Origin: Cirrosporium novae-zelandiae
Lineage: Eukaryota
DNA length: 64,000 nucleotides
Assembly (NCBI GenBank): GCA_026023565.1
Contig: JAPETS010000050.1
Coordinates: 1 to 64,000 of the forward strand
Reading direction: 5' to 3'
In this document: piece by piece, positions 12,286 through 55,963 of the stretch
How positions within the stretch are numbered: the first letter of the stretch is position 1
How the letters are laid out: each line of letters opens with the position of its first letter
Notes under the pieces: model-generated
What the model was told of the DNA's origin: nothing
Seen by the model: only the letters and a program-made list of their open reading frames with translations
Database searches by the model: none
Translations under genes and position numbers: made by a program

Positions 12286-12441
12286 CGGTCTGGGACCTTG
12301 GTACTTCTTGTAATTACCGTAATAATTTACGAAACGAAGTAACTTCGCCGCTTTGATATCATTAGACTATATCTATCTTAAAAAACCATTTCATACTTTA
12401 CCTCTATAAAATAAGTAGTCTCTATCAAGATTTGCTACCTA

Positions 12442-15425
12442 ATGTCTGCTGGTGATATAAATGGAAATGCTCCAGATGTTTCTCAGCCACATAAATTCAA
12501 CTGTCGTTTCTGTGATCAAGTTTATCATAGAAAGGATCATTTAACGCGCCATGAGCGCAGTCATACCTTGGAACGCCCATATCAATGCTCTCACTGTAAC
12601 CGCCATTTTAGTCGCAGGTCGGTTCACGTTTTTCCTCGTTTTTGATCAAATGTCTATTTTTTATATTATTATCATTGGATCACCTATTTGATTTCTTCCT
12701 ACATTTGCTCAATTGATGTTGATGGGTCCAAATCAGAGATGTCCTGAAATGTCACATTGAGAAACACCGACCACACTCTCCACGAACAGGTCGAGCTTGT
12801 GATCGATGCTATGTTCGTAAGACCAGATGCAATGGACTAGAGCCTTGTAGTACCTGTACTACAACGGGAGCTGAATGCACACGCCGTCGTTTTGACCAAC
12901 AAAATGAGGAGAGTGAACTAAATATATCCTCAACCAATTCCTTTACTCCGAATACGACTCCTTCAAGAAATTTGATAGCCTCTATGAGTACCAATTCCTC
13001 TATCACGCCTGAGTTATCTCAACATCCGTCATATTTTGCTGATGCGCTACATACCGAACCTTCCGTCTCTGTTACTCGGGAATTGGGCTCTTCCGGATCG
13101 TTCGAGCCAGGTCTTGACCTTATCCTTTCAGAGATGCAGGAATTCTCCCCGCTCGGGTTCTCCAACTTTGAAATTCCTGGGTACCTCGGATGGGGGGGAC
13201 TGTCCGGTGATTCTATATCCTTTGAGCCTTCCAGACCTCCAGTAAGGCACAGGCTTTCTACACCCTTGCGAGAGGTACAGAATACAATTTCCGTAGCATC
13301 TATAGACAATGATGAGACAGATATGCGAAATTCTCATCCTGGAACTTCTGAAAAAGCCCCTGAGCTACCAGAGTCAAGTGTGATGAGTGACCTATCAAGA
13401 GCTACCCCATTCATTCTTAGGAGTCCAAAGTCTCTTCGGTCATCATCTGCATCAATTAGCCCCTGCTCTGCGGAATTTGAGACGCCATTCCATGATATAC
13501 TCTTCAGCCGAGAAGCACATCCAACAGCCGTAGATATTATTTCAGCAGTCACCAACGGGTGCCTCGATACCCTACCCCAATTTGTTGATGATGAAGTTGC
13601 GTGGGAAGGGATAAGCAAAAATCTCTTCCAAGAATTACATCCAGATGGTCCTATTTGTCCAGATGCGGAGCTTTCTATCTCCCCGGCAACAATGGTTGAT
13701 CATTTAATTGATATCTACTTCCTGAGATTCCATTCATCCTGGCCAATTCTTCACCAGACCACATTCCGTCGAAATGAAAAGCCGTCGCTATTAGTTCTCT
13801 CGGTTCTAATGATAGGCGCCTCTCTATACGAAAGCAACCATTCGATTTTGGTTGCCAACCGACTCCACGCTGCTCTAAGAAGCCTACTATACAATGTATC
13901 GGTGAGTCCTGGCTATGATATTCCATGTTCAAGTTTTCAGTGGGTTTCCGAAGGCTTATCTCTACACTAGGCCGATTTACGTCAGATTCGGAGTTGGTCC
14001 CTCTCTCTGTACCAAGCTGACATCCTGAACATCATATTTGGCTTTCTGAGTGCTGTTCGTCATTATTTTTCTATATTGTTTGCGGGCTCTCTAACTAAGG
14101 GGATTTTTTTAGCAACGAGCCGATGCAATTATGGCTGAAGTGGCGAACGGTGTTTTGGTAACACTTATTAGACGTTTAGGATTCTTTAACCAAGAGTTTG
14201 TGGCATCTGGCGAGGAAACAGCACAGATCTGGATTTACGGAGAAGAAAAGAGAAGGTATTTTTTCAACAACTAAATTATGTTTTACCTGCAAAAGCCGCT
14301 GACGGGGGCTGCTTTCTCCCTACCTCTTTTAGGCTTGCTCTCGCTGCTGTCAAGATCGACTCCTACATTAGTGTCGTACACAATCGCCCCCCCACAATTT
14401 CATACGAGGAGTTGGCGATATCGCTCCCCTGTACTCAATCAACATGGGATGCACAGAGGGATGCCAGTTGGAAAATACGGGACCAAGAGTCGATCTTGAG
14501 ATCCCACTCTCTTGTCTCTCAGGTCGTACAAGATGTTGTGAATAACACAGGGGATATCATGCCGCTACTGGAAGAAGATTACCAGCTTATTTTATGCCTA
14601 ATACAAGGCATGATATGGCGAGTAATCAAGACAGAGGCCCTTGAACGAAGAAAGCAAGCGGGAACCACGAGTCTAGTGACAGGACGATTTCCCAAAGGAA
14701 TAACTAAGGAAAGCCCAAATTCGGCTTCGCGTGTGTATAAGATCTTGGAGGTGTGGAAAAATCACTTCGCTGTTATAAGCGAACGTAAAAATACTCCTAC
14801 AGAGACGTCTAACCGAGTTAGCAGGGTCTTTAACTCCCTCATCCTGTGGCATCTGGATATCATTCGGCTGGAAGCTGATCTCGATCTTTTACAAAGTCTC
14901 GCTGGAAGTATAAAGATGGCATCTGAGCATTCTAAAGATGCTACCAGTAAACTCTTCAAGGTGAAAGCTTGGGCTCGTGACGCACAAGGCCGGGCCAGTG
15001 TCTGGCACGCCATACAAATTTGGTCTTTATGGGACAAGGAAATATCCAACGACCCAAGCATTGTTCTAGAACTTATTGCTCACATTGGACTTTTTCAAGC
15101 TAGCGTAGTTCTCTGGGCCTTTTTACAGGCATTTCACACTTGTGAAGTTTGCTCAGATGCGTCTAGAACGGCCAGTTCAGACAATGCGGATGCCTTGGAG
15201 ATTACTCAAGTGGACGATTCTTCATCATTAGAGACTTGGCTCAAGACAGGTGGTCCAGCTTCTTTCAATGGCCATCCACTTTGTTCATGTCAATTGCCAA
15301 ACATCATGAAAGACTTTCAGCGGCTCTTACAGAGACTGGCCCCGACTTCAGGTGTGGGGAACCGCCTTGCAGCGCTCATTCGCGACCTCGAATTAAAGGT
15401 CGAGGATAAGGGAACTAGGGCTTAA
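12442..15425 (+). CDS. Fungal transcription factor with two C2H2 fingers, a Zn(II)2Cys6 cluster and a fungal-specific TF domain
   Basis: CRFC..HERSH and CSHC..HIEKH fingers (the second split by intron 12617-12736), RACDRCYVRKTRCNGLEPCSTC..C binuclear cluster, and YFLRFHSSWPILH plus EEKRR...LPC middle-homology motifs; about 4 introns. Confidence 0.88.
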
Positions 15426-15741: not shown

Positions 15742-17345
15742 TTACTGGCCAAACCCATACTTCGTCTTCCAACCGGCATTGACAAGTGCTCGGGTCTCTT
15801 CTGAATAACCTTTATCGAACGAGGCTTGAGTAAATACAAAGTCGTCTTGAGTATACTGCTCAATAAACAAGCAGTCAGCGACAACCCGGCCGCCTTGTAT
15901 TGGATCTCCTGGCCCATGTGACATGTAGGGCATCAAAGTAAACCCCTTAATGTTTTCGAAAACATACTCGTCTTGTCCCGGGCGGCATCGTGTCACATGC
16001 GCCCAAAGAACGTCATCAAAGTTTGTTGGGTCAATGTCGTCTCCCACAATGACCAGTCGCGATACTGCGTCGGCGGCATGAGATCCCCAAACTACGTCAC
16101 CTATCTTTCGACAGAAATCCTGTGGAGATATGTTCATTCCTCGGAGTTTCTTGGTATCGACCTGTATAGCTCCCCATACGGAATGCGTTTCCCAAGAAAC
16201 CCATGCGAAATTGACGGGCAAGCCGTGTCGTTGACAAACTTCGATAATTGCTGCAGAAGCCAAAACACCGGTGATTGTATGCTATGAATATTTGATCAAT
16301 AAATGAACGATGTGGAAGAGGCTTAACTTACAGTCTCCTCGGGAGCCCGGCCGGCTACTGCAATTGGAAGAATTGCTCCTTCTCGATAGGTAATAGCATT
16401 GACATGGAATATTGGCTGTGGCCTTGTTTTCCCGGGAAAGAGCAATCCAAACATTTCACCCATTGGTCCTTCTGGTGCCGTCTCCGTGGCTGATATAGTC
16501 CCCTCCAAAACGATTTCAGACGTGGCTGGGACATAAAGATCGTTCGTCTCACATTTAACGACATCCACGGGAGCGCCAGCCAAAGCTCCAACATAACCAC
16601 TTTCATCCACGTTGGCAGGAATTGGCATACCACTCACAGCAATTGCAATAGGCGGAACCCCAAAAGCTAATGCCCATGGGGTATCTTGGCCTTGCTGCTT
16701 CCATTGGTTATGAATTATCCCAATGTGCTGTGTTGGGGCAACAAGACCAGTAAGCTCATTCTTACTATGAACCATGGCTCGAGCAATTGACCAATTCGTC
16801 CACGACTTATCTGGAGTTTGCAAAATATGCATACCATAAGATTGAATATATCGACCTCCATCAAGACCATGCAGCTGTGGAATTGGAAGTTTAGTCAAAT
16901 CGATATCATCCCCCTTGATCACTGTTTCTTTACATGGCCCTGTCTCCACAACCCTTGGTAGGATTGGTTCGTTAAATTTGACGGACAGCATTTTGTTGAC
17001 AATATCCCGCTCAGTAGCATCAGATGGAAGTCCGAAATGCATTGCAACTCTCCCGAACTGCCCTGGGCCTTTCTTTCGAAGACCACCTGGGGCTCCTAAA
17101 ATTCGGAGAAGGCCATTCCTAGAGCCACGAACATTGTTGAATAGAGGTGCCTTCTCTCTTGTTTCGTAAACTTTGCGGGTGACAGCTCCCACTTCTCCGT
17201 CAGAATCCACAGAGGCATTGATGTCCACCAAATCGCCTTCTCGGCGCAGAGCGTCGACAAAGGATCGAAAATTCAGGTAAGGTTTATAATTAGCAGCAGT
17301 TAAACAGCTCGCTGCTTTTGATGATTTAGCTGCGTTTGATGTCAT
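15742..17345 (-). CDS. UbiD-family prenyl-FMN decarboxylase, Fdc1/ferulic-acid-decarboxylase-like
   Basis: FRSFVDALR, GPCKE, DGGRYIQSYG, WTNWSIAR, EGPMGEM, VGDDIDP and TRCRPG motifs; one GT-AG intron near 16283-16331. Confidence 0.92.
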
Positions 17346-17559
17346 GCTCGGCTGTCAAATCCTCCCTTGGTACTCGACTGGCCAGGCTATTGTTTTGAAT
17401 GTATGAAAGAGATACCCACGTATTAGTGAGGTATAGTCAACACCACTACTAGACACATATAAAGATAAGGCAGGAAAGTGGATTGAATATGAATGATATC
17501 GTTTTACGAGGAAAGAAGGAGATGTATTTGGTTTATATATACATCCTAGGGTTAAGCTC

Positions 17560-17695: not shown

Positions 17696-18595
17696 CTTTT
17701 CTATTTGCTATATCCCACTTGGGTATTCAATGGACATAGGATATTAGCTAATAATGAGAGGTTAAACTTGAACAGACGGTCAGTTTGGGATAGGGAATAA
17801 GGGAAAGTACAAATTTTTGGTAGTATAATATTTTTTAGACATAGCAGACACGGGAGTTATGTCCCGAGCTTTAACATAACAAACATAATATCACAGCATA
17901 ATCCTCTGCAACGAGATATTCATTATTGTCATTGTCAGTTGTGCCAGGTAAATAAAACAAGCAAACACTGCAAACATCAATCATAATTGTCTAAACTCCC
18001 AACCTCATTTCTACCTTTATTTCTATTTACTGGCTCTTCAGACTTTTAGGAGACGTTCAGGTAAAATCGGGTTATTGTTCAAATCGATATTTGATTGAAA
18101 CCCGATTTTGTTTAAAGGCTTCCCTTTGCTATATAAAGGACTTCTCGTTTTGTCTATGACGCGTTTCCCCGCATCTCTTCTCGCGTCATGTCCTTATGCT
18201 TCCCGTACCCGACCCACATTCCTAATCCCCTTCCTCTACCCCCTTAGGCCCTTTAGTTTATGACAAGTTTTCCTTTTCCAATATGTTGTTGATCTCATAT
18301 TGAACAGCAGTTCAGCATTGACTCCTTATACCTCTCTATAAATAGGGTATAATCTCTCATCTAATCCCTTTTTATTTCTTTTTATTCCCTTTCTTCTAAC
18401 TCTTTTTACAGATGACCACATTATACTCTAAAACAGTCGAGACAGTCACATCAACTTAAGGCTATTCCAAGAAGTAGCATCAGTTCCATGCAAGACGCTA
18501 ACCTCTAGAAACTGTGATTAGTCTAATAGAAAAACCACTTCACTCTATTGTTTGTTCGGCTTCTCCACCAGAAACTGTCTTCAAAAACATTCAAT

Positions 18596-20209
18596 ATGGC
18601 AGATCTAAACTACAGAACAAGCTTCATGTCAGCACTGGAATTAAAATTCTGCGAAGAACTACTGAACGAGATGAGAGAAGAGCGATATGATAATATTTCA
18701 TATCTTTTCAAAGCCCCATTCAAGACTTGGGTACCCTATGAAGCTGGCTCAATCCGTATGGATCTTGAGATATTAGGCCAGAAACTCGAAGATCATCAAT
18801 ATGAGAAGGCGCAGCAATTTCATGATGATGTGAAACTCATGTTTCGCATTTCCCGCCCATACTTCGGATCAGATCTTGTATTCTTTCAGGACAGGAAGCA
18901 ATTTGAGAACTTTTTCGATGAAAAATGGATATAAAAATGGCAATGGCTTAAAGAACATGTTATAGCATGTTCTAGGAGACTCTCAGGACAATATTTGGCC
19001 GAAAAGCATTCGTATGCTATTTATCCGTATCCAGCTTCCCAACCCATCGAAGAAAAGCCACCTGTATCCTCAAGCGCCTCATCAATTTTTGAAGCATCGC
19101 CAACTACTAGACTTCTCCTTAATAGTCGCTCTAGCGTGGTCTTTGAGCTAAGTACAGGCCCTTTAGTCGCACAAACCACAGAAAGTATAACTGGGAGTCC
19201 TCCGAGACTTGCTCACCAGCCATCAAAAGTGTTGATCATGTTTATATGTCTGCGGGTCAACCAAATTTGATTTCCGGCCTCGATGCATTACAGCTCTCGT
19301 ATACTGTTATTGATATGGAGTCCCGGAGCCCCTTGCCCAAACGAGAGGGCGCTTCTGGGATTGGATCAAATCCAGTTGGCTGGTAAGTGAAATTAGTATT
19401 TATGGAAAGCTAGGCTATGTTACTTTCAGTGATTCCCGAATATTTTTCCTCTTTGGGTCGAAGTTCACTTCTTTGATATCTGTATTTTCCGTTTATATGC
19501 CAGTATGATGATAAACATGCAGGCACGACGAAACTCACGACCTTCACCTAAAAATTCTTGCTGGGGTCCCAGAAACAACTTTCCGCCTCCCACAAAGCCA
19601 ACTCCTCTCCTGCTCTCAATACTTCCGACATCTTCAAGAGGAGCATCACTCAACAAAGCAACCTACGCCATTTCATTGTCAGGAATTTAAACTTCCTACC
19701 ATTCGCCCGATAGTATTCAAAGAATTCGAAAAATGGCTTCCGGGCTACAAATGGAGAAATAGCATGGATGTTCTCAGTCTGTACTGGCTTGGGGAAAAGC
19801 TTGAGGTTCCAAAGCTTCGAGACGAGGCCATCCAGAAACTTTGGACACAGTGGGTATGGAACGGCATCTTTACGGAAGCGCAGTTGCTAGATGGAATGAT
19901 ATACAAAAAAGCAAGGAAAGGGTCCTCGATGTACAAACTTCTGTTATTTATCATGACTAAAATGCTCTTTCTGGAAATCGGGAAGACCAGGTTACCAAAA
20001 GTATCCAAAGATACCCAAAAATGGCCATCGAGATGGTGCAGAAGGCCTTCATCACCTCTCCGAAATTGTTCTCTCTCAAGAACGATGGGTCCCAGGCTTC
20101 GAAGACATTGGCGGTAGAGATCCTTAGATCGTTCCTTGAGGACGAATCAAATATGACCCAATGGTGTCTCGATTCGATTAACAAAACAGCATTCAACAGC
20201 AGTGTGTGA
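18596..20209 (+). pseudogene. Degenerate bromodomain-like plus BTB/POZ-like locus
   Basis: LKFCEELLNEM..MDLEILGQKLEDHQY..FHDDVKLMF resembles a BET-type bromodomain but has an in-frame TAA at 18932-18934. The downstream frame LKILAGVPETTFRLPQSQLLSCSQYF..LYWLGEKLEVPKLRDEAI is BTB-like, with an apparent frameshift near 19970. Confidence 0.6.
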
Positions 20210-21227
20210 GTGATGGACCAGTTGGAGTGGGTTTTGCAAGGAAGTCGACTTGAAACTCCATGCGCAAATACGTATCCCTGGAAGTAAACTGTTCATTGAT
20301 TCTACATGGACGTTTCTGCGGTGTACCCCATAAACCTGTACACTCCGCTTCCGGTCACCTTTGGGCCACCAGTGCCATTGGAGGTGATGTTTACTTCAAT
20401 CGGCATGGGATTTATCCCTACGTTGCTATGAAAAGGCAGTTTGTTATAGGCCCTATTCCAAATCCCAGGATAATGAAACCAATATTATGGGACCAATAGC
20501 TATCGCCGTAGTAATTTCTGTAAATAGCACACCCAATTCGTTATCCGATAGTACATATTAAACCCGACATTCAAAATCACGTAGACTATCTGAACTTCTT
20601 TCCTCCCCCCCCCCTTCTTCTCCCTTTTCCAACCAAACCATAACCTCTATATAAAGTAGTAGTTGAAGAAAAAAAAGAACATAACAATCCGTACAAGTAT
20701 TTTAAATAATTATTAATTACATATAGTTACCCCCTATATCCCCTTACTATAAATCACGTGCCTCTTCTGCTGTATCTATCTCCCTACTCCAAGTGCCGAA
20801 CACCCCTCCCAAAGGCTTCTATCGGAGGGGGAACACAAAATGTGGGGTAAATCATTGTACCCAACCCCTCCTCTCCAAGGTCCCTTAGAGCTTGGAGATT
20901 ATTAGTCTGAAAGGATCCCCGGAGATCTCGTGAAGGTTACTTTCTTTATTTTTCTTTCTTAATCAACAAGTACGGTAATAATCAGTCTTTGCGTAGTTTC
21001 ACGAACTTGGAAGGGGAAGAGGTGCATATATTAATTGACCAAGGGTACTTGCAGGCTTTTGAGGAATATTGGTTTAATTGATGGCTTATAAGGTGGATTC
21101 TTTCCTCTGATAATTGATTACTTCACAACTATTCTTACTTGCTTACCTTGCTTGTTGTGGAAAATCGAGGAAAATACCAAAGACTCAATTGCTCAACTCA
21201 GAAGTACAACCACAGCCTCTTCCAATC

Positions 21228-22304
21228 ATGGATCCCTCTCAAGTGGAGATACCTCCCCTCAAGGACCTTACCATCGATAACATAACCGAAAACGTTCACA
21301 ATATAAACTCGCGTTGTCCAGACCCCCGTATGAAATATGTCCTGGAACGCTTGGTCGTCCACCTTCACGACTTTGCGCGTGAGACTCGCCTTTCCACGAA
21401 TGAATGGATGGCCGGTATTCACTTCCTCACACAGGTTGGACAAATCTGCAGCGACGTGCGACAGGAGTTTATATTGTTGAGTGATGTGTTGGGGTTGAGT
21501 TTGCTGGTCGATTCTATTGATCATCCGAAGCCGGAAAATAGTACCGAGGGGACAGTGTTGGGCCCATTTCATACGCACGAAGCGCATAATGTGGGTCATG
21601 GGTCATCGATTTCGCATGATCCAGATGGGACGCCGTGTCTCGTCAAATGCACCGTGAAGGATACATCCGGCAAGCCTATTGCCAATGCCAAGATCGATGT
21701 ATGGGAGACAGATTCAAAAGGGTTTTATGACGTGCAGTATGCGGACCATAGTGCACCAGATGGAAGGGCGATATTAGAGAGCGATGCGGACGGCGTATTT
21801 TGGTTCAAGGCTATTGTGCCGGTTCCATATCCGATTCCGCATGATGGACCGGTGGGGAAGCTTTTGCAAAAGCTATACAGACACCCATATAGGCCGAGCC
21901 ATATGCATTTTATGTTCGCGAAGGAGGGTTTCGATCATCTTATCACGTAAGCATTTATCCTTTCTTTGATTTCTTTGCGTTCCTCCTAGTTCGATAAAAA
22001 TTTTTTAGTAACATAACCCTCCTGTTTCTATAGTTCCTTGTATGTGCGTGGCGACCCCTACGAATCCTCCGATGCTGTCTTTGGCGTCAAAGAATCGCTC
22101 ATCATTGATGTTGGCAAAGTGTCCCCCGAAGATGTTAAGAGATATGATGTCAAGGAAGGAACTTCGCTGATTGCACACGATTTCGTCCTTGTTTCAGACA
22201 AAGAAGCAGGCTCATTGAGGGAGAAGCTAGCACGAGAGGCGATGGAGGCGCAAGGAAGGAAAATGAAGTATTTCCAAGGGTTACCAGTGCCAGACGTGGA
22301 TTGA
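21228..22304 (+). CDS. Intradiol ring-cleavage dioxygenase (hydroxyquinol/catechol 1,2-dioxygenase type)
   Basis: RQEFILLSDVLG, TEGTVLGPF, GFYDVQY, YPIPHDGPVG and RPSHMHF iron-ligand motifs; intron 21947-22033. Confidence 0.93.
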
Positions 22305-28027: not shown

Positions 28028-29997
28028 ATGTCTCTCTCAGTAAAGATCAAGACCGCCCAGTGCGAGTATGAACAACCAACTGGACTGTAAGTTAATCAAT
28101 CTATCAGATTTCCATCTCACTCTTATCATTACTGTTCCTGTTCCTTCTCACCACCATGATTGGGTACAATAACATGGTGAAATGTGGGGGAAAGGGAGAT
28201 TGGGGCTTAGGGATCTGGGGGGATATTCAGGGATGATGATAGCATGATGCAATGATTTCATAATCCAATTGTGGAGAAAGAACATCAGAATCAACCCCCA
28301 ACCCCAGACCCCCGGACCCCGAGGCCCCCAAATACCAAAATCAACCCCTCCCCCCCCCAGGTAGTCGCTTACCTTGTTTGCCCCCCCCATCCCCCCAAAA
28401 AACCTTGCAACTTCGGATTTCCATTAAACCGAAATATTAATAATAATCATCTGTTATTATCAAGTGTCCTGAGAAATCATTACTGACTCGGTGCCTTTTG
28501 TTCCATAGTTACATAAATGGCGAATTCATCAAGGGTATCGATGGAAAGACTTTCGAGACCATCAACCCTTCGACCGAGAAGCCCATTTGCTCGGTCCATG
28601 AGGCAACCGAGCAAGATGTTGACGTCGCTGTCAAGGCTGCTCGTGAATGCTTCGAGAATCACTGGAGGGATGCCATCCCTGAACAACGAGGAAAACTCCT
28701 TGTAAAGCTATCAGAGCTCTTTGAGCGGGATTCCGATATTCTAGCTTCCATTGAGGCTTTGGATAATGGAAAGGCTTTCAACATGGCTAAGGTCGACGTC
28801 AGCATGAGCGCTTCCTGCCTGAGATATTATGGTGGATGGGCCGACAAGGTTGAGGGCAAGGTTATCGATACCTCCCCAGACACATTTAACTACACCAAGT
28901 CAGAGCCTGTAAGTCTTATTTTGCCTAATATCTGTTTATACTCTCTAATTCTAACCCTGGACTAGATTGGTGTCTGCGGTCAAATCATTCCCTGGAACTT
29001 CCCTCTTCTCATGTGGGCATGGAAGATTGGCCCTGCCATCGCCTGCGGTAATACCGTCGTTATCAAGACTGCCGAACAAACTCCACTCTCAGGCCTCTAT
29101 GCGGCCAAGCTCGTCCAGGAAGCTGGCTTCCCACCAGGTGTCATCAACGTCATCACTGGTTTCGGCCGAACTGCCGGTGCCGCCATCGCTAAGCACATGG
29201 ACATCGACAAGGTTGCCTTCACTGGTTCTACCCCTGTCGGTCGTCAAATCATGAAGGATGCTGCCTCCTCCAACCTCAAGAAGGTCACCCTCGAACTCGG
29301 TGGCAAGAGCCCTAACATTGTGTTCGATGATGCAGACATCGACAACGCCATCTCATGGGTGAACTTTGGTATTTTCTTCAACCACGGTCAATGCTGCTGT
29401 GCTGGCTCGCGTATCTACGTCCAAGAAGGTATCTACGACAAATTCCTCGCTCGCTTCAAGGAACGTGCCCACAAGAATGTCGTCGGTGACCCCTTCGGCA
29501 AGGACACCTTCCAAGGCCCCCAGGTCTCTAAGCTCCAATTTGACCGTATTATGGGATACATTGAACACGGAAAGCAAGAAGGTGCCAAGGTTGAGGTCGG
29601 TGGTCAGCGTGTCGGCGACACCGGCTACTTCATTCAACCCACCATCTTCAGCGGTGTCAACGAGAACATGAAGATCATGAAGGAAGAAATCTTCGGCCCT
29701 GTCAGCTCGATTGCCAAGTTCTCCACTGAGGAGGAGGTCATCAAGCTTGGAAATGGCACCAACTATGGTCTCGCCGCTGGCGTTCACACATCCAACCTTT
29801 CCCGTGCACTAAGAGTAAGCAGCGCCTTAAAGGCTGGCACAGTCTGGGTCAACACCTACAACACTCTCCACCATCAGCTACCATTCGGTGGCTTCAAGGA
29901 GTCCGGTATTGGACGAGAATTGGGAGAGGCTGCACTGTCCAACTACTGCCAGACAAAGACGGTATCCATTCGGTTGGGAGATGCTCTCTTCGGTTAG
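28028..29997 (+). CDS. aldA: Aldehyde dehydrogenase (AldA/Ald5-type)
   Basis: [46 protein letters not shown] and EEIFGP motifs; introns 28087-28508 and 28909-28965; strong C-ending codon bias. Confidence 0.96.
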
Positions 29998-30724: not shown

Positions 30725-32024
30725 ATGGGTCTCTCAGCTCGATATTTTCGCCTACCTAGGCCAAAGGTATCTTTACCTCTATCCATAATCCTGCTCATTT
30801 TAGCCATCATCTACAATAGCTAAAGAATGGAATACTAACGTTGATAAAAATCCATAGAACTTCCTTTACCTAATGTCGCTCCGTACCGGCACCGAACTCA
30901 TCACGTTGACCCTGTTCCTCAACAAAGTGTCGGGATTTTATGGTCTCCTAGCTCTCCTAACAGGCTACCATCTCTCCATGACCCAACTCTCCATGTACAT
31001 TTATTCCCTCGGTGCCCTGGTCCTCGCATTCATACTGGCACCTCATATCCGGAAAGCCTCTCTCCTTCCAAACCTCGTACTCGCTCACTTCTACACTCTC
31101 GACACCCTGATTAACGCTTCTTACACCATCGTTTTTGCAACAACGTGGTTCTTAGTTCTCGCCAACCCCTCAAATCCAACGGGTCCTGGAGCCTCAACCA
31201 TAGATGCCACCTCGGGGTTCACCTCCCCCGCAAACAATTTCACCCATGTCTCCGTCACCGCATCCCCTGCTGATGGGACTACTGGTAGTCAAGATGCCGT
31301 TGCTGTCGGCATTACAGCCAACTCTTCTCCTTCACTTGTCGCCGGCGGTCCCCCAGCCGAAGTTGTTCTCCATCCGGAATCTCTCTCTTCGGTCCTCATA
31401 ATCACATCTCTCAGTCTTGTCCGCGTCTATTTCTGCCTCGTCGTACTCGCCTACGCACGCTCTGTCCTCCGCACACACATTTCCCTCTCAGCCATCCGTA
31501 ACTATGGCTACAACCACACATACACCTCCCCCTTCAGTGGCGTCAGCACCACCACATCTGTGGGCGGGACTCCCATAGCCGCATCTACTGATGCTCAACT
31601 GAACCCCTTCATCGTGGACCCAGAATATAGTTTCGGTTGGGGTGGCGCCCTGGGCCGCTTCCTTATCTCTCTCGCACCCTCATACTGGCTCGGTGCGGAA
31701 GACGAAGCCGATGATATAAACCCCGACCAATCACTCGGATGGATGAAATTCGCGAGCGTGTCGAGGAGAGGACGGAATAACGGTGGATTCAGGAGCCTGG
31801 TACCCAGCGTAGGAAGTGCCTGGGAGATGGGATTCGGGGGACGACCGAGCGGAGAGGAAGGCGGTGTAAAGGAAAGGGAACGACGAAGGAGGAGCGGCAC
31901 AGGACCACCAGGTCTGCCTGTGGGATTGAAGGACGTTGTGGTCGCGGAGCCCGTCCGAACAAGCATTAGCATTGCTCCCAGCAGAAGTGCTAGTAGAAAT
32001 GGAGACGAATCCGAGAGGGTGTGA
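30725..32024 (+). CDS. KEI1: Inositol-phosphorylceramide synthase regulatory subunit Kei1
   Basis: PRPK|NFLYLMSLRTGTELITLTLFLNKVSGFYGLLALLTG, several TM segments and ERERRRRSGTGPP tail; intron 30767-30857. Confidence 0.85.
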
Positions 32025-32567: not shown

Positions 32568-33264
32568 GGGGTTATGGCGTTTATTGGATTTGGTTTTTGG
32601 TTTTGGGGGTTGAAAAAGGGGAGATAGGGATAGTTTATACAATAAGTATTGGGTTATTGGTATATATATCATTTATTATCATTATTATTATTTATTATGT
32701 TGTATTGTGTGTATCGTGTATTGTGTAGCTGGTACGACCTTTCTATTAATTCGTCCATCCATTTATTCGAGAGAGAAAAAAGAGATGGTAGAACCAAAAC
32801 TAGTCTATTCAGCTTGAATCGGTCTTGATTTTGTTTAGAAAATATATTCCCTGTTCTTATCAATATTGAAATACTCAGGGGATAAGTATGTTTGTATGAA
32901 TGGCTGAATGGCTGAATGGATGGATGGATGTATATACGTGCGTAAAAAAATAAAAGAGCGAGAGTGAACACAAGCAGTGCCAAAATCTAAGTATTTTATA
33001 AAAAATATTTTCCGAGTAATTAATCTACCCATCAGTCAAAAAACATTACAGCCGATTTTTTTTCAACATACAACTCTTTTTTTGTCATGTCAAACCCAAA
33101 TTTCATGGGCCCCTTCCTCGAAAAGTCTTGACCGTAGCTTTTTTTCTTTTTCTTCTTCTAGAGATTCTTAAGTCTAAAAATGTGACTAAAGCTGTAGGTC
33201 TAATATCGAGTAGTTGAGCTTCAAAGTATCATCTGGGGTCACTGACCGTGGTACTTATACCTAA

Positions 33265-35365
33265 CTATGCTCGGCTCAATTTCTCGCCTTCCTCGGCCTT
33301 CTGCAAGCCATACTTCTTCAGCCTGTTGATGGGTCAATCAATTAGCTACGTGTTCATCGGAGGATAAAACAACACATCGAGTGAATGAGAGAGAATATAC
33401 CTAATGGATTGAATTCCAATGAAGCCTGTGGTATCCACAGGGCTAAAGTTGTCAAGCGAGTCCATGGAAGCCTCCTCAGCCGAGTACAGCTTCTCAGTGC
33501 TGCTAGACCGGCCCAGAACGTAGGCATTGCCCTTGTAGCAGCGCAACTTGACCTCCCCGTTAACGCGCTTTTGGCTGAAGAGGAGCGAGTTCTCAATGAA
33601 CTCGCGCTCGGGCGAAAAGTACATGCCGTTGTAGAGGTAGATGGACCAGTTGTGGGTTACGAATTGGTCCCGCAGACTGCGGACCTGGGCGTCTAGGACG
33701 AGGCCTTTTGAGAAGAGCGGTCAGTTTTTATATGCTTCGTGATAAAAGGATGATGATGAGCTAGAGACGGAACGCTTACCTTCAAGATCGAGATGCGCAA
33801 GACGGAGGATAGTCATTGCGGGAGCTAGAAGTAAATAGTTAGCTTCAGTGCACGGCTTCTTGGAAGTATTAAAAGCGAGAGTTGAACCACAGCTTAGCGA
33901 AAACGATTTGGCTCGTCTCGATCGCATTAGTCGACGTCCTCCCCACAAATGCTCTCTGACATCCCACCTTATCATCTGCTCTAGGCCAACAAAGGGTATA
34001 AAAAAGGGCAAACTTGCAATCATAGCAGCCACGGCTCTTGAGTCCAATGTATCTATTCTCGACAATGTCAATTCTACCAATACCATGTATGTAGCCAATC
34101 TCATTGAGCTTTCGGAATAGTTCAACAGAGTCTTTGAGTTCTCCATCTGGGGTGACAAGCTTGACGGGTATGCCCTTCTCGAAGTGCAATGTGATCTCGG
34201 TGGGCTCATTGGGTGCAGTTAGGGGGTCAGCCGTCATCAGCCACATGTCAGAAGGAGGCGTGTGGTTAGGATCTTCCAAAATACCTGTCAAATATCTGTT
34301 AGCAATTAATCAAGCTGAAAGAAGAAGACAATTGAGAGCTTTGCTTAAGCAACTTACCGGCCTCGTAGCTAGTATGGGCGAAGTTGGCATCAATGAGGAG
34401 GTTAGCCTTTAGTCAAAACCATCTGTGTTAGGAGATAGTACGAACCCATAGACCAGGGTTTACTCTATTTCGTATTAGCATAAATTTCTGGCTCCACAGC
34501 AGCATCATATTTACCTTTGTGGAAGTCACTGGAATATTCATCTTCGCAGCGTATTCGAGAAGATCATTACGGCCAGCGAAGCGCGTGAAGAATTTTGGAT
34601 CGCGCCATGGAGCGATAATTTTGATTGTTGGCTGTGATACGATGCTTAGCACTGCTTGGAAACATTTACCTCTGCATCCAGCGTACCTGAATAGTATAAA
34701 ATGCCAATTCAAACCTATCAATTGATCAGCTAAACCTACCACCTCACTTCCGACAACATAGTTCAAACCTGACTTGGTCGTTTCCCTTGCCTACGCCTGG
34801 TCAGTAATGTGTAGATCGGCTAGACAGGTCAACTTACCTGTGCAGCCGTGACTGACATAGTCACATCCCTCTTGTTGAGCAGCACGCATCTGGGCCCTTG
34901 CGATGACCGGACGAGCCAAACTTGTTCCTATGTTGTGTTAGTCACTATAGTCGCATCCGCCCAACCCGGACAAAAGCAGACAGGCCGCACCTAGAAGATA
35001 TCGTCCCTCGTAAATGGCATTGCATTGAATTGCTCTGAAGCACAGCTCTTCTACAAACTCCCGTCGAAGATCTTCAATTATCATCTTCTTAGCGCCAATC
35101 TTGAGTGCTTTCTGCTCGACAGCAGCCCAGTCTTCCTCTTGTCCAACATTTGCTAGGAAGCAAACTACTTCATAGCCCTCCTCTTTGATCGAGCATTAGC
35201 TAGAGGATATCAAAGGTAGGATAGATTGTATACCCAGGAGCCAGCGTAAAATACAGCTAGTGTCGAGGCCACCTGTATAAAAGTCATTGTTAGTCATAGA
35301 TTATTATATGCACATGGTTAGTGAAGTATACCTGAATAGGCTAAGCAAACTCTTCCTTTCCCCAT
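33265..35365 (-). CDS. ARG1: Argininosuccinate synthase, 13 exons
   Basis: Spliced product reads [76 protein letters not shown] and YFSPEREF. Confidence 0.96.
33825..34017 (-). other. ARG1 intron 10, GC-AG type (193 nt)
   Basis: TAT GAT T|gcaagt...gctaactatttacttctag|CT CCC GCA restores GCYDSPAM. Confidence 0.85.
34391..34445 (-). other. ARG1 intron 8 with apparent non-canonical GT-TG boundaries (55 nt)
   Basis: TCT ATG G|gttcgt...ggctaacctcctcattg|AT GCC AAC; only this junction restores the conserved WSMD.N..H.SYE motif. Confidence 0.7.
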
Positions 35366-35504
35366 GTTTAGAGATTATAGTATTTGATAAGGTCTAGAGA
35401 AATTAAAAGTCACCACTTTAGTAAGTAGGTAGTTTATGCAGAACAATTGAATTTACTTCTTTACAGTCAAAGGAGAAGAATATAAAGCAGAAGGGAGAAA
35501 TGTG

Positions 35505-37519: not shown

Positions 37520-39685
37520 CTAATGACCATCCAAAGATTCATCATCCGTTAATACATCATCCGGGTCACCATCGTGATGTAATGTTACACTATTGAATTC
37601 TTCAAATGGATCCGCAATATCTCCACCTGGAGTGGCTAAACCTGAATCCAATGGAACTCCTTTGTACCTTGGGGAAGTAAAATCAACGTCGTTGCTTTCC
37701 TTGACATTCCTGAAGTTGACAGTATCAGCGGCCCGGCCTCCTTGATGAGGTATCATTGGTGGTTTCATATGTCGAAGTAAAGCCCATTGGGTTTGACGAA
37801 AGAATGGGTGTGCCTTAACATCTGATGCACCAGCACGGGAACCCAAGCGCCGATTTTCATCCTTGATGAGGAGTTTGCGGATAAGAGTTTTACAAAGACT
37901 TTGGACAAATTAGTTACTTGGTGGTATCCCGGTATAAGGGGAGCTGAATACTTACTGTGAGATAGGGTCATGTCCTGGATTATCTGGAAATGGAACATCA
38001 TCCCGTAGGATATTCGCAAAAGTAGCATTCCGGTTTTTGCCTTTGAATGGCGTCGTCCCGTATAACATTTCGTATATCAAAATACCAAGAGTCCACCAAT
38101 CAACAGCACTTGTATGTCCACAGCCCTTAATAACTTCGGGGGCGATATACTCTTCAGTACCAACGAACGAGTTGGTTCTGAAGTCCGCTATGCAAGATTT
38201 AGTGTCAATGATCGGACCAGAGGAGGGATTGTTTCCATTTCGTCCAACAATCATCGTGGGTTTCCCGCCAGGGTCAGATTGTTTTGATAGGTCAAAGTCC
38301 GACAACATGATGTGACCTGATTGATGTAGGAGAATATCTGATCAAATAAATAAGCATAAAATCCCCAGATGATCAACACAAAACGCGATCATTGGTAAAT
38401 TTCCGTGTGTGTACTTACTTTCAGGTTTCAAATCACGATAAATGAAACCCATCAGATGCAAATATTCAAGAGCAGCTGTGACTTCTGCAGCATAGAATCT
38501 TGCATCATCTTCAGGAATGCATTTACCGGGTCTAGTTTGCAAAGCTAAGAAGAATTAGTATAATATAACGCAGCTTTCAAAAGCCGCATGCCATACCTCT
38601 AAAGAATTCTCCTCCACTACAATATTCCATACAAAGATATAGATGATCTTCCGACTGGAACGAATGGTAAAGCGTCACAATAAAGGGATGGTTACTTGTA
38701 GCCAGAATTTCTTGTTCGGCTAACGCACGTTTGATCTTGTTTCGTTTAATCATTTCCTTCTTGCTCAGAACTTTGAAAATGTCAATAAACAAGCCATCGA
38801 GATCAAGGTAGATAACATACCTTTCATAGCGTACAGTCGACTAGATTTCTTTTCTCTGACTAGGTAGACCTTTCCGACGTCTCCTTTCCCAATCAACTTG
38901 ATCTTATCAAAACTCCCAGGGCCAACCTCTACATTCCGGACTTTAATTGAATTTGAACTATAAGTTCTTCTGAAAGCCACCTGATTTCTTATTTTACCAG
39001 GCGATGGTATGCTCCCAACATCAGGAATTGGCAAAAGCCCTTTTGGTTGATCTACCAAGCCGAGACCTGATAATTTTTCATCATGGACCAATGGCTCTTT
39101 GCCTAGTTCGGCGGTTGCAGGTCTATCGTCGCCTTTGCCCGAAGCAAATAATCCTTGCGCATTAGGGGCCGATGCCACTCTGCGTAGTTTCCTAGCCAAT
39201 TCTTCTTTTCCTGCAGTTGTGGCCTTGTCTTCTGGATCCCCATCTGCACCATTCACCTTCAGCTTGGGGGTTTCGGGCGGAGAAGGCGGTACGCTACCTG
39301 CATTATGATGTCTCAGAGCAGGTGGGCCTTGGTGAACAAAGTAGGGATTTGCCTGAGCAGTGGGTGACATACTGTCATCAAGAGGATTTCCTTCGCTAGC
39401 AACGGTCGCAGAGCGGTTCCGTCCTAATCCCGTAAGGAATTTCGATTGTCTGAAGGAGGACTTGCTCTCGGACTTGGGCGTGAGGTTTCCGTCATGGCTA
39501 ACGGTGGTATTGTTGTTGCCAGAACTATTTATCCGGAAGAAGTTCTTGAGCTTCTGTGGGAAATGGGAGGTGGAATTATTTTCACTGCTTCCTTTTTTCG
39601 ATGTCAACGAAAGGCCAGAGAAATTTCTTTTTTCTGGCTTCTCCGACATGTTTGAGGAAGACAGCGGACTATGGAATTGAGTCAT
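37520..39685 (-). CDS. nrc-2: AGC Ser/Thr kinase of the Nrc-2/Kin82/Fpk1 family
   Basis: [44 protein letters not shown] and [14 protein letters not shown] motifs; four canonical introns. Confidence 0.93.
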
Positions 39686-46131: not shown

Positions 46132-47847
46132 TCAAACTCTTTCATCAGCCTTCACAGGATCTGGTATCTGGTGTTCAGAAATATCATCATTAGCTTGGTA
46201 ACTAGGATGCCTTGCTGAATGTGTTTGGGGCCCTTCCCCAATATCCATAGCTTTGGCTTTGTGACCTTCACTAAGTTCCCAACTTCCAAGTCGTTGATGA
46301 TCTTTGTTCAGAACTGTAGCTCCAGAGCTGCCCTTCACAACAGTCAAATCGGGATCCGAAGCAAGCTTTTCGGCTCCTTTGAATCCTCCAAGTTCCGAAC
46401 GCCTCTTGGACCTTGATCGAGTCATACGAACCCCGCCGAGGAGCATCATAAGGGCAAAAGCTATTCCAGCTACAGCCAATGCAGCAACCGCTCCGATAAC
46501 TCCAGCGACAGCTGGTTGCATCATATTCATTTTGCCGCTATTGCTATTATCAAAAGATGAATTTGTACCCCATCTAATGCTGCCGCTGTTTGCATATCCT
46601 GCGCAAAAAATACTCAAACTGCCACAAGTATTGCACCAATCCTCAACTGAGCCAAGCGTAAACGAATCCATGCCACTTGTAAAGTCTTCAAGCGACATGT
46701 CAACTTGACTAGGACTATTGCCAAATAGTGGGTAAGAGATTAAGGCTGACGAATCGTCGGTACCGTTTCTAAACAGAAAGCGGACATAAAGCTGATCCAT
46801 ATCCGGGTAGGTATTGATGTCATCGCCAACACCGAATAGCTCGAAGACCATTGAAGACCCTGGTTGGGGGAGTTGGTTGAAATAAGAATTGATATCGCTG
46901 AGTTTCGCTAGAGCTGCAAAGGAAAGGAATGGCTCAAAGCTTCCAAAAAGTAGGTTAATCTTTGATGACGCCCCTAATGTCGCAATATTATTCATGAGTA
47001 AACCGACTACTTCTGACGCAAATGTACGACCAGCAACAGCTTGGATTTGTTCGCGGAAGTGTCCATTTGTCAAATTTCCATTGATAGCATATACGTATTG
47101 ACTAGCAAGAGCACGAACTTGTTCTAAATCGGAATCATTCAGATTGCTCCGGATAGTATCATTATGGATGTATCCAAAATTGACGTAGTCGAATATGGGA
47201 TATGCATTTCCATAACCGACGGAAGAATTAGACAAAACACCCTCGAGAATCGGAGAATACAAACTCTGGTAAAATGACATGGAATTCTCCTCAGTATACG
47301 TAAAATCCGCTGTGTACAAATAATCTGCGGCAGAGCTCATGTATGCAGGGCAGTTGACTTCTCCGGCAATCCATATGGAATTTGGATCAAGCGATGAAGT
47401 TGTATAAATAGTAGGATATTGATATCCGCCTAGTGGAAAATCTATATTTGAGCCATTTGCCAACACTGACATGGAATTAATGACAGTATGGTTTGTAGAG
47501 ATGTCCAGTGGAGGATATAGTCCCTGCATGAATGCTTGCGCAGACGTCACAATATAGCCGTCAGCAGTTGACATAACAAAGGTCTCGGACCCATCGATCT
47601 CTAGTGCTGAAATGTTGTTGATAGCTTGTGGGCTGGAAGGGATAACATAACGATCGCGAAAGGTAGACCCAGCGGAGTATAATTGTTGTGCTCCAAGAGG
47701 CGTTAACACGGTGTCACCATCAGCCAGGTAAGGATTTCGATCTCCGTAGAGAGTGAAAACCACGGCACTGTAGACGGTCTCTGTATATCCAGACTGAGCG
47801 GATGCTAAGATCATAAATAGGCATCCTATAAACATAGCCAAGAACAT
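46132..47847 (-). CDS. Histidine acid phosphatase superfamily type-I membrane protein
   Basis: Signal peptide, divergent RHGxRxP motif (LYGDRNP), LTPLGAQQL, SAQAFMQGLYPP and a C-terminal TM helix; the catalytic His appears to be absent. Confidence 0.85.
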   Translation of the reverse strand: MFLAMFIGCLFMILASAQSGYTETVYSAVVFTLYGDRNPYLADGDTVLTPLGAQQLYSAGSTFRDRYVIPSSPQAINNISALEIDGSETFVMSTADGYIVTSAQAFMQGLYPPLDISTNHTVINSMSVLANGSNIDFPLGGYQYPTIYTTSSLDPNSIWIAGEVNCPAYMSSAADYLYTADFTYTEENSMSFYQSLYSPILEGVLSNSSVGYGNAYPIFDYVNFGYIHNDTIRSNLNDSDLEQVRALASQYVYAINGNLTNGHFREQIQAVAGRTFASEVVGLLMNNIATLGASSKINLLFGSFEPFLSFAALAKLSDINSYFNQLPQPGSSMVFELFGVGDDINTYPDMDQLYVRFLFRNGTDDSSALISYPLFGNSPSQVDMSLEDFTSGMDSFTLGSVEDWCNTCGSLSIFCAGYANSGSIRWGTNSSFDNSNSGKMNMMQPAVAGVIGAVAALAVAGIAFALMMLLGGVRMTRSRSKRRSELGGFKGAEKLASDPDLTVVKGSSGATVLNKDHQRLGSWELSEGHKAKAMDIGEGPQTHSARHPSYQANDDISEHQIPDPVKADERV

Positions 47848-48662
47848 GGTGAGCCTCTAGCATAAAAAGTCCTAGCTCTAATCAGCACCAGATTATCAGG
47901 TGTAACAGGGTAAAGTGGAGAACAGACAACGTATTCTGTGGTCAGCGACACTGAAAGAAATGGCTAGTTTATTGCGGCAAATATCAATATTTTCCCTCGC
48001 CGTCTACTTTTATAATAAAACAACGGGCTTTAGTCCTGAGTGCCAGCCCAGCGTAGTATTAATTAGATTCGAGCTCGAGGTACGGATAGGACTGTCAGAG
48101 AGGAGAAGTTGGGTGATTATGTACATTGGATGGATACACGGCTGCTGCAGATGGGCTCGTACTGCATGAGATCGCCATGACGCCAAGGTATGAGGAGCTC
48201 AAAGCTCTTTGTAGATAAGCAGGAAGCTTCATTAGGCTCAGCATGCCTAAGTTGAATAGACTAGCTATGGAGTTGCTGGAGAGGGTGGGATGTCTGCATC
48301 CGGCGATGGGCTTGCATACAAAGGATTGGCAGGTTAGCAGCCCATAAATGTAAAAAGAGTGATAGAAGAATAAGTAAAGTCACTACTACATATTCTTTAG
48401 CCTTATCCAAGCAAAGGAGGGGAGGAGTTTAGCACATAAGGTACATTAGGTGCCTAGGTAGTAGATGTTGGCACAAGGGCACGAGGACCAGATAGGTAAC
48501 AGATAGGTAATTAGGTGTAAGCCCAAAGGTGGTCTGGGGAGGGACTGGAGGGACTCCTTTCTCGCTTAATTTAACAAAAAGCATGGATAATGGATAGCGC
48601 TTAATGACAATAGAGAAATGGTGAGGGGTTGAGAGCATCCCATCATCAATAATCATCAATCA

Positions 48663-49218: not shown

Positions 49219-52123
49219 ATGGTGAGAACTCGAGGCGCTCGACAATCTGCCGAGGACAGCGAGCTTGCAGCGCCGCCAGCTGCGCTCTCAGCTGTAGCTT
49301 CAGCTCAGTCAGGGAAGCCAGATGGTCAGTTACCTTAATCAGCTGTTCCTTTGCGACTGATTGCAATCGCATATCAACCACGAATTGAAACTCTTTGCAC
49401 TTCCTTGAGGGTCATTTACGACTAGCCCTTATTAAGAACGATAACTGACTGTGCGATTTATATACTTTAGTTCCTCCTCAACCCGAGCTGTCCGTTCCCG
49501 CAGATACAGACAATGATACGATCGGATCGCGCCTTCGCAAAAGACGCCGAACCGGGTCTTCGACCTCAGAGATCAACGCAAGTGGAAATAAAAGGCCAAA
49601 TTTATGTCATGCAAGTCCTGCTGAAGCAAAAAAGGCAGACAGTCCAGAGAGGAAACGAAAATTGGATAATCCCAAGGGCAATGGCGAACCGAGTGGGAGT
49701 AATGGAACTGTGAATGGGCATAGTAAAGCTTCACCGCAGCCAACTCCTCGGGCCCCCTTCCAACCCTCTGGACAACCTCAAATCGAGCAAATAATATCTC
49801 TGGATACCAATGTGGTCAACGATAACGCCATAGCCAACAGCGTTGAGACCCCACCGCTATCAAAACCAGATTACTCGGCCATTATCGCAGAAATTGTAGA
49901 GCATGGGGTAAATGTTGATAGACGCTATGCACAGGAGTACAAAGATGGAGATGAGGAGGCTGTGGATACAGATAGCTGGCAACCAGGGGATGCAAGCATA
50001 CATCTCAAAGTTCAAAGCCTGCCCATTCTCGATAATTTGGTAAGTTTAAAGAATATATTCTTTTGAGTTGCATTACTAGGACTAATCTGAAACTAAGTCC
50101 ACGCAAATTCTCAATACCTTAGCCAAATCGACCTATCAAGAGATCTGTGTTATTGTCACGCAGCCCGAATCAGGTCCTGGACAAGCATACGCGACTCTCA
50201 AGAGTCTTTTTGACCATACGAAGAAGGTCTACTCGATTCATGAGAACTTTCTCTCTGCTACCGAACTCCGTCTCACTGAGCAGAAACACATTGACATAAT
50301 TCGAAAGGCAAATCTTGCCACTTTCGTGTCAAGCGTTTTTGGTGGTCAAGATGTGGGGTTCTTCTATCTTGATGACCATTTTCTCGAAACATTTGTTCCA
50401 GATGGGTCACGTCTCTTAAAGTCACAGGGAGGCCTCTTTCTAGAGCTTAAAACACAAGCTTATATATCCGCGATGACAAATAAGGAAACTAATAGCAACC
50501 GTGAAGATCTACTGAATACGTTATTTCCAAAAGATATTGAAAGGCGTTTGCTAGAACGGCGTCCAGGTGCCAGGAGTCTGGCTCCAAGTGAGGCTGATTT
50601 TGTCAATCGTGTACGCTCTCGCCGAGAGCATCTTTTGTCAGAGCCAGACACAGACGAAGCTATCCAAAGGCTTTCAGAAAAATACATCTGGGAGGATTTT
50701 TTACGTGATCTCTGTCAATATGTTAGCAAGAACTTCGATTCTATTGGTGTGCAAGCTCATGTAAGTGATCTCTTTTTCATTTACTATTCTCGTGCTCATA
50801 GGTTCATAGGCTCGAAAGCCACTTAAAACTAGGCCATCGATATATTCGAGTAGTGAAGTTCGAAGCCAGATCCAAGAAGCTAAGCAGGATAGGCCAGAGA
50901 GGTCAGAGCAAAGTGTTAGCCCAGAAAAGCAGAATGGACAGATAGTCCAAGAAGATGAGCCAAAACAAGGTGTGCAAGAGGGACTATCGGTTCCGACTGG
51001 GGACCTTTCTCCTGGTCAGCCGAGTTTTGATATCAATATCGATGATATTGCTGAAAAAGCTGCCCGTGCTGCCGAAGTTGCATTACAGAAAATTCACGTG
51101 GCTCCGAATTCGCAACAGAACTATCAACAGCAACGAGATGCCCAGGCCTTCCAAACGATGAACACGTCTCCTACTCCCCAGCCACAGCAAAACACGCCCT
51201 ACGCCGACCCAAACGCAATTCCGTACCATACTCAATCTGCTCCGACACAGGTCTTGTACGAACGGGCTAGACAAGCTGCCACAGCCAAGTCATCACCGAC
51301 AAACCGTCGTGCCGGGGTGCCTAGTCAGCGTCGCCCATGGACAACTGAAGAAGAAAATGCTCTCATGGCAGGCCTTGACCGTGTGAAAGGGCCCCATTGG
51401 AGCCAGATCCTCGCCATGTTTGGGCCTGGCGGTACTATTAACGAATCCTTAAAGGATCGGAATCAAGTCCAATTAAAGGATAAAGCCAGAAACTTGAAAC
51501 TATTCTTTCTTAAAAGTGGAATCGAGGTTCCTTATTACCTTCAATTCGTGACCGGAGAGCTCAAGACACGTGCTCCAGCTCAAGCTGCAAAAAATGAAGC
51601 AAGAGAACGTGCGAAGGTACAGGGTTCTGAAGACAAGGCTCACATTGAGGGGATCATGGCTCTAGCAGGAAGCTCACAAGGGGGGAGCGAGACGAATGGC
51701 GACTCCACGATGTTCGTTAATCGTACCTCCCCGACTTATGCACAAAACGTCGCACAGTCTTTACAAGCTGCAACGGCAGCTGCTAATGCCGGTGCTGCAT
51801 TCTCTGGTCGTGCTACCGCCAATCTTCCTGCCGCTTATAACTACCCGGCATACACCGCAGCTCCCATGGGAAGTCCTTTCCAAAGCACAACATCAATGAC
51901 AGCTAATGGTTTGCCAAATACACCGACCCATTTCGGCTCTGGTGCTATGCCTTCCGAATCTCCTCATATGCCTCCATCCGCTCCAATGTCAGCCAGCGCA
52001 GCCGCTGTTGATTCGGCTGAACGTGAACTCTCGGCAGCACTCTCAGCAGCAACTGCAGCCGCGACTGCGTCTTCTCAAACAACAACACCTAAGATAGAGA
52101 CAGGCAATGGCCATTCATCGTAG
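49219..52123 (+). CDS. TBF1: Telobox/Myb telomere-repeat-binding factor Tbf1
   Basis: TRF-like region ([33 protein letters not shown]) and Myb telobox [43 protein letters not shown]; three introns. Confidence 0.92.
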
Positions 52124-55187: not shown

Positions 55188-55963
55188 ATGTCGTCTGCCA
55201 GCATCAACCAACCACCTTTAGAGCCTCTTACCAACCAGAATTCCTCAGCCCCTTTGCAACAACAGTCAAATACTGAAACGGAACTTGAAGTCCCTCTTGA
55301 TACAGATATCGACATGTCCAATCCCAGTACCAACCAAAATATGAACCTTGATGGTGCCGGTGATGACCCTACACAGACGGAACCTCATCCGACTGCACCG
55401 AGCGATCCCCGCGTCCCCACCAAGAAGGATGCTAGCTTGCGGGAATTTCTAAGTAAAATGGACGATTATGCTCCTATAGTACGATCTAACCTTCTTGACG
55501 TTTGTGTAAAAGGATCTGTTGAGCTGACTACTATGCCTAGATTCCCGATGCCGTCACCACATACTACCTCACCCTCGGAGGCCTTCCCCCACCTCCGCAA
55601 ACCTCCCCACACCTCGCACGCCTCCTTGCGCTCGCAACTCAAAAGTTTATCGCAGATGTTGCTGCTGATGCTTATCAATACGCTCGAATCCGAGCGTCCA
55701 ACACCTCATCAGCAAATAATCCTCTCGGAGGTCTAGCGACAGCTGCAGGTGTCCCTGGCGGAGTTGGTGTGCCAAGTGGAGGCGGACAAACAGGAGGAAG
55801 TCAGGACAAAAAAGGAGCCGCTGCGCTTGGTATACAGAGAGCCGGATACGGCGGCGGAGGTCAAGGCGGTGGCCAGGGGAGGACTGTTCTGACGATGGAA
55901 GATTTGGGAATGGCGGTTGGAGAATATGGTGTGAATATTAAGAGAGGGGAATTCTATCGGTAA
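55188..55963 (+). CDS. TAF10: TFIID/SAGA subunit Taf10
   Basis: [60 protein letters not shown]; intron 55479-55540. Confidence 0.95.

Follow-up and report, generated by a model that had tools for sequence, protein, structure and literature searches.

The DNA analysed here, referred to below as the window, is a single stretch of 64 kb that carries on its minus strand (35365-33265, ATG to stop) an ARG1-type argininosuccinate synthase gene with 13 exons and 12 introns. The introns were first set by eye and the exons were then joined by their coordinates; the result is an open frame of 1,248 nt that encodes 415 amino acids, and all 13 exons are open. Ten of the introns are of the GT-AG type, intron 10 is GC-AG, and intron 8 begins with GT and ends with TG. 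Exon 3, searched singly, matches the N-terminal HUP domain of Pfam PF00764 (E 3.8e-18), while the match of exon 7 to the same entry (E 0.0046) lies under the gathering score when that exon is taken alone. The C-terminal domain, PF20979, is matched by exon 10 (E 1.4e-28) and by exon 12 (E 5.1e-24). The W-S-x-D...H-x-S-Y-E motif of the family is present in the ARG1 product when the TG splice is used. By its domains and its conserved residues the product is an argininosuccinate synthase, and the corresponding enzyme activity is predicted. The features of the gene that matter for what follows are these:

33265..35365, minus strand: ARG1 gene, defined by exon splicing, by Pfam PF00764 and PF20979 and by agreement at 122/123 conserved columns
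34446..34464, minus strand: exon 8, 19 nt, encoding S-K-P-W-S-M and the first base of an Asp codon; ends ...TGG TCT ATG G
34391..34445, minus strand: intron 8, 55 nt, GT...TG; starts GTTCGT and ends CATTG
34440..34445, minus strand: donor of intron 8, GTTCGT, with T at +3, as in intron 5 (GTTTGA)
34423..34432, minus strand: CCTAAC and then CACAG inside intron 8, 23 nt from the donor; the AG is at 34424-34423 and its use leads to a stop
34407..34408, minus strand: AG of the AAAG acceptor used by the public annotation; exon 8 is skipped and the exon starts at 34406
34401..34407, minus strand: branch-point motif GGCTAAC, with the branch A at 34402, 11 nt to the last intron base
34391..34400, minus strand: tail of intron 8, CTCCTCATTG, with the TG acceptor (T 34392, G 34391); pyrimidines at 7/8 pre-terminal bases
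34358..34390, minus strand: exon 9, 33 nt, encoding the rest of the Asp, 10 residues and the first base of a Gly codon; begins AT GCC AAC
34369..34370, minus strand: first AG past the branch point, 22 nt into exon 9; the exon would start at 34368, with a frameshift and a stop at residue 200
33825..34017, minus strand: intron 10, 193 nt, GC-AG, donor GCAAGT; needed for 23 conserved residues that the deposited protein P0027 lacks

The remainder of the gene map of the window was drawn from Pfam scans of 244 open frames, which placed the following genes around ARG1:

3785-5596, minus strand: ThiF-family E1-like protein
6027-6997, plus strand: ribose-5-phosphate isomerase A
8488-9150, plus strand: FMN reductase
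9710-12072, minus strand: Mre11
18530-18931, plus strand: bromodomain protein
30858-32021, plus strand: Kei1
37955-38840, minus strand: protein kinase
46135-47856, minus strand: histidine phosphatase
50086-50823, plus strand: TRF telomere-binding factor
55541-55960, plus strand: TAF10
56644-57150, minus strand: ribosomal protein uS19
57720-58286, minus strand: Tom20
59213-59953, plus strand: chorismate mutase
60055-60918, minus strand: BCCIP
61465-63027, plus strand: GMP synthase

The window also holds a UbiD-family decarboxylase (15745-17354, minus strand), a catechol-type dioxygenase (21114-21947, plus strand) and an aldehyde dehydrogenase (28447-29994, plus strand) within 15 kb, beside a fungal transcription factor of the C2H2 + Zn2Cys6 type (12415-15422, plus strand). 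The decarboxylase, dioxygenase and dehydrogenase may form a neighbourhood devoted to the catabolism of aromatic compounds.

Intron 8 is the unusual element of the ARG1 gene. On the plus strand, 34391 is C and 34392 is A, which gives the intron its minus-strand end T-G. A first-pass annotation of this DNA had described a 55-nt GT...TG intron at 34391..34445, and the borders, the donor, the branch point and the CATTG end were all verified. The distance from the branch A to the 3' end is 11 nt, as compared with 10-17 nt in those 15 further introns of the window whose motif is recognisable, and its length of 55 nt compares with 47-193 nt for the other ARG1 introns. The pyrimidine share of its tail (0.88) is the highest among the 12 ARG1 introns, and its acceptor context consists of T at -3 and A at +1. 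By the features that were measured, intron 8 is thus an ordinary local U2-type intron, the T at -2 excepted, and the simplest history for it would be that a TAG has mutated to TTG.

Other accounts of the ending were tried and rejected. The donor, GTTCGTAC, is unlike the extended donor consensus of U12-type (minor) introns, (A/G)TATCCTT. A stwintron is not a solution because, on inspection, the sequence left over after use of either inner AG (intron positions 22-23 and 38-39) ends in TTG as before. Sliding of the borders does not help either: moving both by one base leaves the mRNA unchanged but turns the ends into GG..TT, no shift is canonical and none other keeps the motif. A-to-I editing was rejected on inspection of the intron 8 sequence. 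An RNA structure that hides the downstream AG or presents the TG was also dismissed, since the 131-nt fold has a z-score of -0.33 and is equalled or surpassed by 68 of 200 shuffles. An introner-like origin was set aside in the same way, as all 12 introns are without a match to other introns or to sites in the window beyond 14-nt chance hits.

Reading through the splice choices around exons 7 to 9, we find that the family's conserved motif is predicted to be restored only by removing 34445-34391. The earlier reading is borne out in three respects: the AG that lies 23 nt into the intron (intron positions 22-23) leads to a stop, the AG that follows the branch point (34370-34369) shifts the frame and brings a stop at residue 200, and retention of intron 8 breaks the open frame with a stop at residue 195. 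A second AG lies near the TG, at 34408-34407, 16 nt upstream of it. The annotation had also asserted that no AG is usable; this stands for a product that keeps the motif, but it overlooked a canonical skip of exon 8 that stays in frame when the exon 7 donor is joined to the AAAG acceptor at 34408-34407. Skipping of exon 9, likewise overlooked, also stays in frame, but the core motif is lost. Its description of the remaining gene as intact is right in that the 13 exons are open, but it holds only if intron 10 (34017-33825) is taken as GC-AG, which had escaped notice.

Searching with the exon 10 peptide yielded 4,159 proteins at E <= 0.001 among 4,201 candidates, of which 120 were listed. Our comparison set consists of 77 fungal homologues of 395-440 amino acids drawn from these 120 listed matches, P0027 being left out and 43 dropped. 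The TG-spliced model agrees with the set at 122 of the 123 columns with a conservation of 97% or more, and the lone mismatch is K for R. On the exon 8 side of the junction the residues of the model are shared by most of the 77 homologues (P177 by 75, W178 by 52, S179 by 74, M180 by 60 and D181 by 74), and in exon 9 N183, H186, S188, Y189 and E190 are each found in 75. When scored against a profile of the same 77 homologues, the TG model reaches 832.1 bits, the form in which exon 8 is skipped (form B) 813.3, the form in which exon 9 is skipped 789.0 and P0027 730.2; the shortened products that result from the downstream AG or from retention reach about 364 bits. The 77 members and the model together score between 637.5 and 842.7, with a median of 806.8. 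The gene appears to be fully constrained, and the best family member would be the product of the TG junction. We considered a decayed pseudogene and rejected it, as the exons are open throughout (13/13) and the single mismatch in the conserved columns is a conservative one.

The 120 listed matches included one near-identical protein, P0027 (392 amino acids), to which its source gives the name 'MAG: Adenylosuccinate synthetase [Cirrosporium novae-zelandiae]'. The protein is misnamed, for its domains, PF00764 and PF20979, are those of argininosuccinate synthase. It is equal to the TG model at 386 of 392 aligned residues and the differences are confined to residues 175-180 and 259-281. In the P0027 model exon 8 is skipped and the AAAG acceptor is used; the model also avoids the GC donor of intron 10 and so loses 23 residues that all close homologues keep. 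This segment, kept in form B, is the sole difference between the two and separates 730 bits from 813. Because P0027 also drops 23 conserved residues at a GC-AG intron, its annotation reflects a predictor that accepts GT-AG introns only: the deposited model is mis-built at two junctions, and it illustrates the behaviour of such a predictor and is not evidence of splicing. Intron 10 itself, at 193 nt, far exceeds the other eleven ARG1 introns (47-78 nt). With the substrate-site motif and the 23 conserved residues both missing from the deposited protein, surveys of pathways that use annotation of this kind could arrive at a wrong picture of arginine synthesis in a lineage that is poorly known.

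Relatives of the gene were sought by scanning metagenome contigs with the exon 10 peptide. The scan found 80 loci, among which only L001-L008 are fungal-like (62-73% identity to exon 10) and the rest are more distant; L001-L012 were examined. None of the eight fungal loci has an intron at the position of intron 8. The W-S-M-D site lies in uninterrupted DNA in seven of the eight, and L008 carries a GT-AG intron that is displaced by 5 nt in the downstream direction. Introns 7, 8 and 9 of ARG1 (34285-34514, minus strand) are near but off three introns of L008 (L008:780-1020), which lie 2, 5 and 8 nt downstream of the respective ARG1 positions; two of the L008 positions are common to L006 and L007. 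These offset introns could reflect near-intron pairs, sliding or independent gain. The 12 introns of this ARG1 gene are to be compared with far fewer breaks in L001-L008, where L001 runs without interruption through residues 69-415 and a single break near residues 19-27 occurs in each of L003 and L005, and the neighbouring genes tested in the window have one to a few introns. All six junctions tested in five of those neighbouring genes have an in-frame GT-AG solution, five being obvious by their motifs and the one in the ribose-5-phosphate isomerase gene being ambiguous between canonical choices. When the other 11 ARG1 introns are included, the TG end is found once in about 18 introns, a small sample that gives no sign of a general laxity in the choice of acceptor. 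A census, by their last two letters, of intron-like stretches with GT, a branch motif and open flanks (30 codons) counted 239 unique ends for AG versus 135-301 for other pairs; AG was thus no more frequent than the others, and the test is without power.

Acceptors ending in TG are very rare in U2 introns, as the first-pass annotation had stated, and the counts in the cited portions of three studies agree with it (PMC2374985, PMC4528330, PMC11590231). In human genes, as far as the portion of the study drawn on here extends, TG 3' splice sites have been described in 36 genes, always as alternative sites that have an AG no more than 28 nt away (Szafranski et al. 2007, PMC2374985). These sites favour pyrimidines at -3 and purines at +1, and the same portion of that study states that TG is 'never the sole 3' splice site' (PMC2374985). 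Intron 8 is like the human TG-AG tandems in its U2-type donor and branch point, in its bases at -3 (a pyrimidine) and at +1 (a purine), and in possessing an AG partner 22 nt downstream, within the limit of 28 nt. It differs in that the human TG stands beside a productive AG, whereas here the AG leads to a frameshift, only the TG form encodes the normal enzyme, and TG use is predicted. Human disease mutations of AG to TG represent the identical one-base change at -2 of an otherwise normal intron; in the cases covered by the cited text the neighbouring AGs are activated, the TG is unused and the gene is inactivated (PMC2374985), an outcome that, if it applied here, would amount to a null allele.

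Precedents from other organisms, again as given in the parts of the papers cited, are closer to intron 8 in some features and more distant in others. The FlyBase 'Rule-Benders' account lists 23 GT-TG introns in Drosophila melanogaster, where GT-TG is the commonest non-canonical U2-type pair; 19 have RNA-seq junction support, 13 are within coding sequence, and for 22 of the 23 there is a similar alternative splice (PMC4528330). Intron 8 has the same U2-type GT-TG pair as these RNA-backed introns but is known from DNA alone. That GT-TG introns can occur in fungal genes is indicated by the curated annotation of Ganoderma lingzhi, which has 22 of them versus 89,855 GT-AG introns (0.024%); this fungus, however, belongs to the basidiomycetes, and transcript data went into the annotation of its introns (PMC11590231). 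Yeast spliceosomes can ligate at UUG and at other non-AG sites with the aid of poly(U) tracts (PMC10711555). The non-AG ('BG', including UUG) sites of Saccharomyces cerevisiae resemble intron 8 in lying near the branch point and in depending on a strong U/pyrimidine tract, but most of their use was seen without Prp18, in prp18-delta cells; the AUG site of GCR1 is another example of such a site (PMC10711555).

Taking these observations together, we put it at an even chance that intron 8 has a real TG acceptor, one that would probably be leaky or inefficient. It would then be an ordinary short U2-type intron in which the acceptor is TTG in place of TAG and the exons are still joined there. The first step of splicing would employ a normal donor, GTTCGT, and a normal branch point, GGCTAAC; docking of the TG, lying 11 nt from the branch A behind a strong run of pyrimidines, would follow in the second step in a part of the transcripts, and the mRNA spliced in this way would be the sole one to encode the normal enzyme. 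The other transcripts would use the AG 22 nt downstream, with a frameshift and probably nonsense-mediated decay as the result, or would skip exon 8. The site would represent a TG-AG tandem acceptor whose TG form is the productive one. The indirect evidence leans towards a functional TG: signs of decay are absent from the gene, the predicted product has the best fit to the family, the geometry of the intron is normal, its tail is rich in pyrimidines and an AG lies 22 nt downstream. Counting against it are the competing downstream AG, which is still present across the Thr-Ser codons ACT AGC, and the experience from the species studied, in which TG appears to be almost never the sole productive site.

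One A/T difference would account for everything. The T might not be the true or the sole base at this site, either through an error in the consensus or because it is the major variant of a sample in which an AG allele coexists, and to this we assign a very slight chance. Reassembly of the reads of the public DNA run X1 with a different assembler gave a contig that is identical to the window over 33200-35400 (2,201 of 2,201 bases, with 0 other letters and no gaps), shows no alternative letter and has a mean k-mer depth of 364 over the ARG1 stretch. A search of public runs for 33200-35400 listed X1 as the lone DNA run that contains the stretch, and no RNA run. X1 may be the assembly's own source, hence non-independent, and contigs drop rare variants; the agreement therefore argues against a slip in the assembly and not against a minor allele. 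X2 and X3, which come from the study that produced X1, were compared at 80% likeness and contributed only short pieces of other organisms, none of them across intron 8. The suggestion of the first-pass annotation that CATAG had been read as CATTG through a one-base assembly error is disfavoured by the contig from X1, even if that run is possibly the source of the assembly, and the TTG letter is probably correct. In a null or near-null allele a recent change of A to T would have killed the acceptor, the transcripts would use the downstream AG, retain the intron or skip an exon, and this individual or lineage would make no working enzyme and need arginine from outside; we regard this as the main rival, unlikely but well short of negligible. 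It accords with the human AG>TG mutants, which, in the part of the study cited, turn to neighbouring AGs and not to the TG (PMC2374985), and a usable AG is present 22 nt downstream, at a distance of 33 nt from the branch A. P0027 stems from what is labelled a metagenome-assembled genome, and the individual is known from its DNA alone. A very recent lesion would leave the remaining gene intact, as is observed; against this, it would have to be the one lesion of a housekeeping gene that is strongly conserved, has all 13 exons open and keeps 122 of 123 conserved columns. The very pyrimidine-rich tail is moreover what the yeast non-AG sites need, according to the cited part of that work (PMC10711555). 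The family of the organism for which P0027 is named is described, in the text cited, as saprobic on wood or bark (PMC6712537), a mode of life in which the fungus would be expected to need its own arginine synthesis and in which auxotrophy for arginine would be costly.

The skipping of exon 8 is an alternative that we regard as improbable: the real mRNA would encode an in-frame protein of 414 amino acids in which six unrelated residues take the place of exon 8's seven. Its ends are canonical GT-AG, it keeps the frame, AAG acceptors serve introns 2 and 11 of the same gene, and a CCTAAC motif lies 20 nt upstream of the AG at 34408-34407. The product, however, is 19 bits lower on the family profile (813.3 versus 832.1) and loses P177 and S179, which are shared by 75 and 74 of the 77 homologues. 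The serine at the position of S179 is, we take it, the one that binds citrulline in solved argininosuccinate synthases. The deposited model P0027 takes the same route, but that annotation also missed the GC-AG intron and dropped 23 conserved residues there. Intron 7, for its part, has its own branch point and a TAG only 50 nt from its donor, and the perfect preservation of exon 8, of its donor and of its phase would be left unexplained if the exon were skipped.

A functional TG acceptor in intron 8 would be a feature of a known kind, and the unusual trait here would be that the use of the TG is obligatory. We suggest tentatively, and with rather less than even confidence, that the TG may be the sole productive 3' splice site in an essential amino-acid gene of a wood-dwelling ascomycete, with an AG partner that does nothing but shift the frame, and that arginine synthesis might in this way be throttled, and possibly regulated, by the fidelity of the second step of splicing. 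Since the human TG is 'never the sole 3' splice site' in the study cited above, so far as its cited portion goes (PMC2374985), the present case, if true, would be one of natural obligatory TG use. If the TG is unused, the finding would come down to an auxotrophy caused by a single gene in one environmental genome and would be of minor interest. Should the TG be used, ARG1 would offer a natural test case for the choice of a non-AG 3' site by a fungal spliceosome, in which a single short intron is combined with a growth phenotype that is easy to follow, arginine prototrophy, and with a competing AG only 22 nt away.
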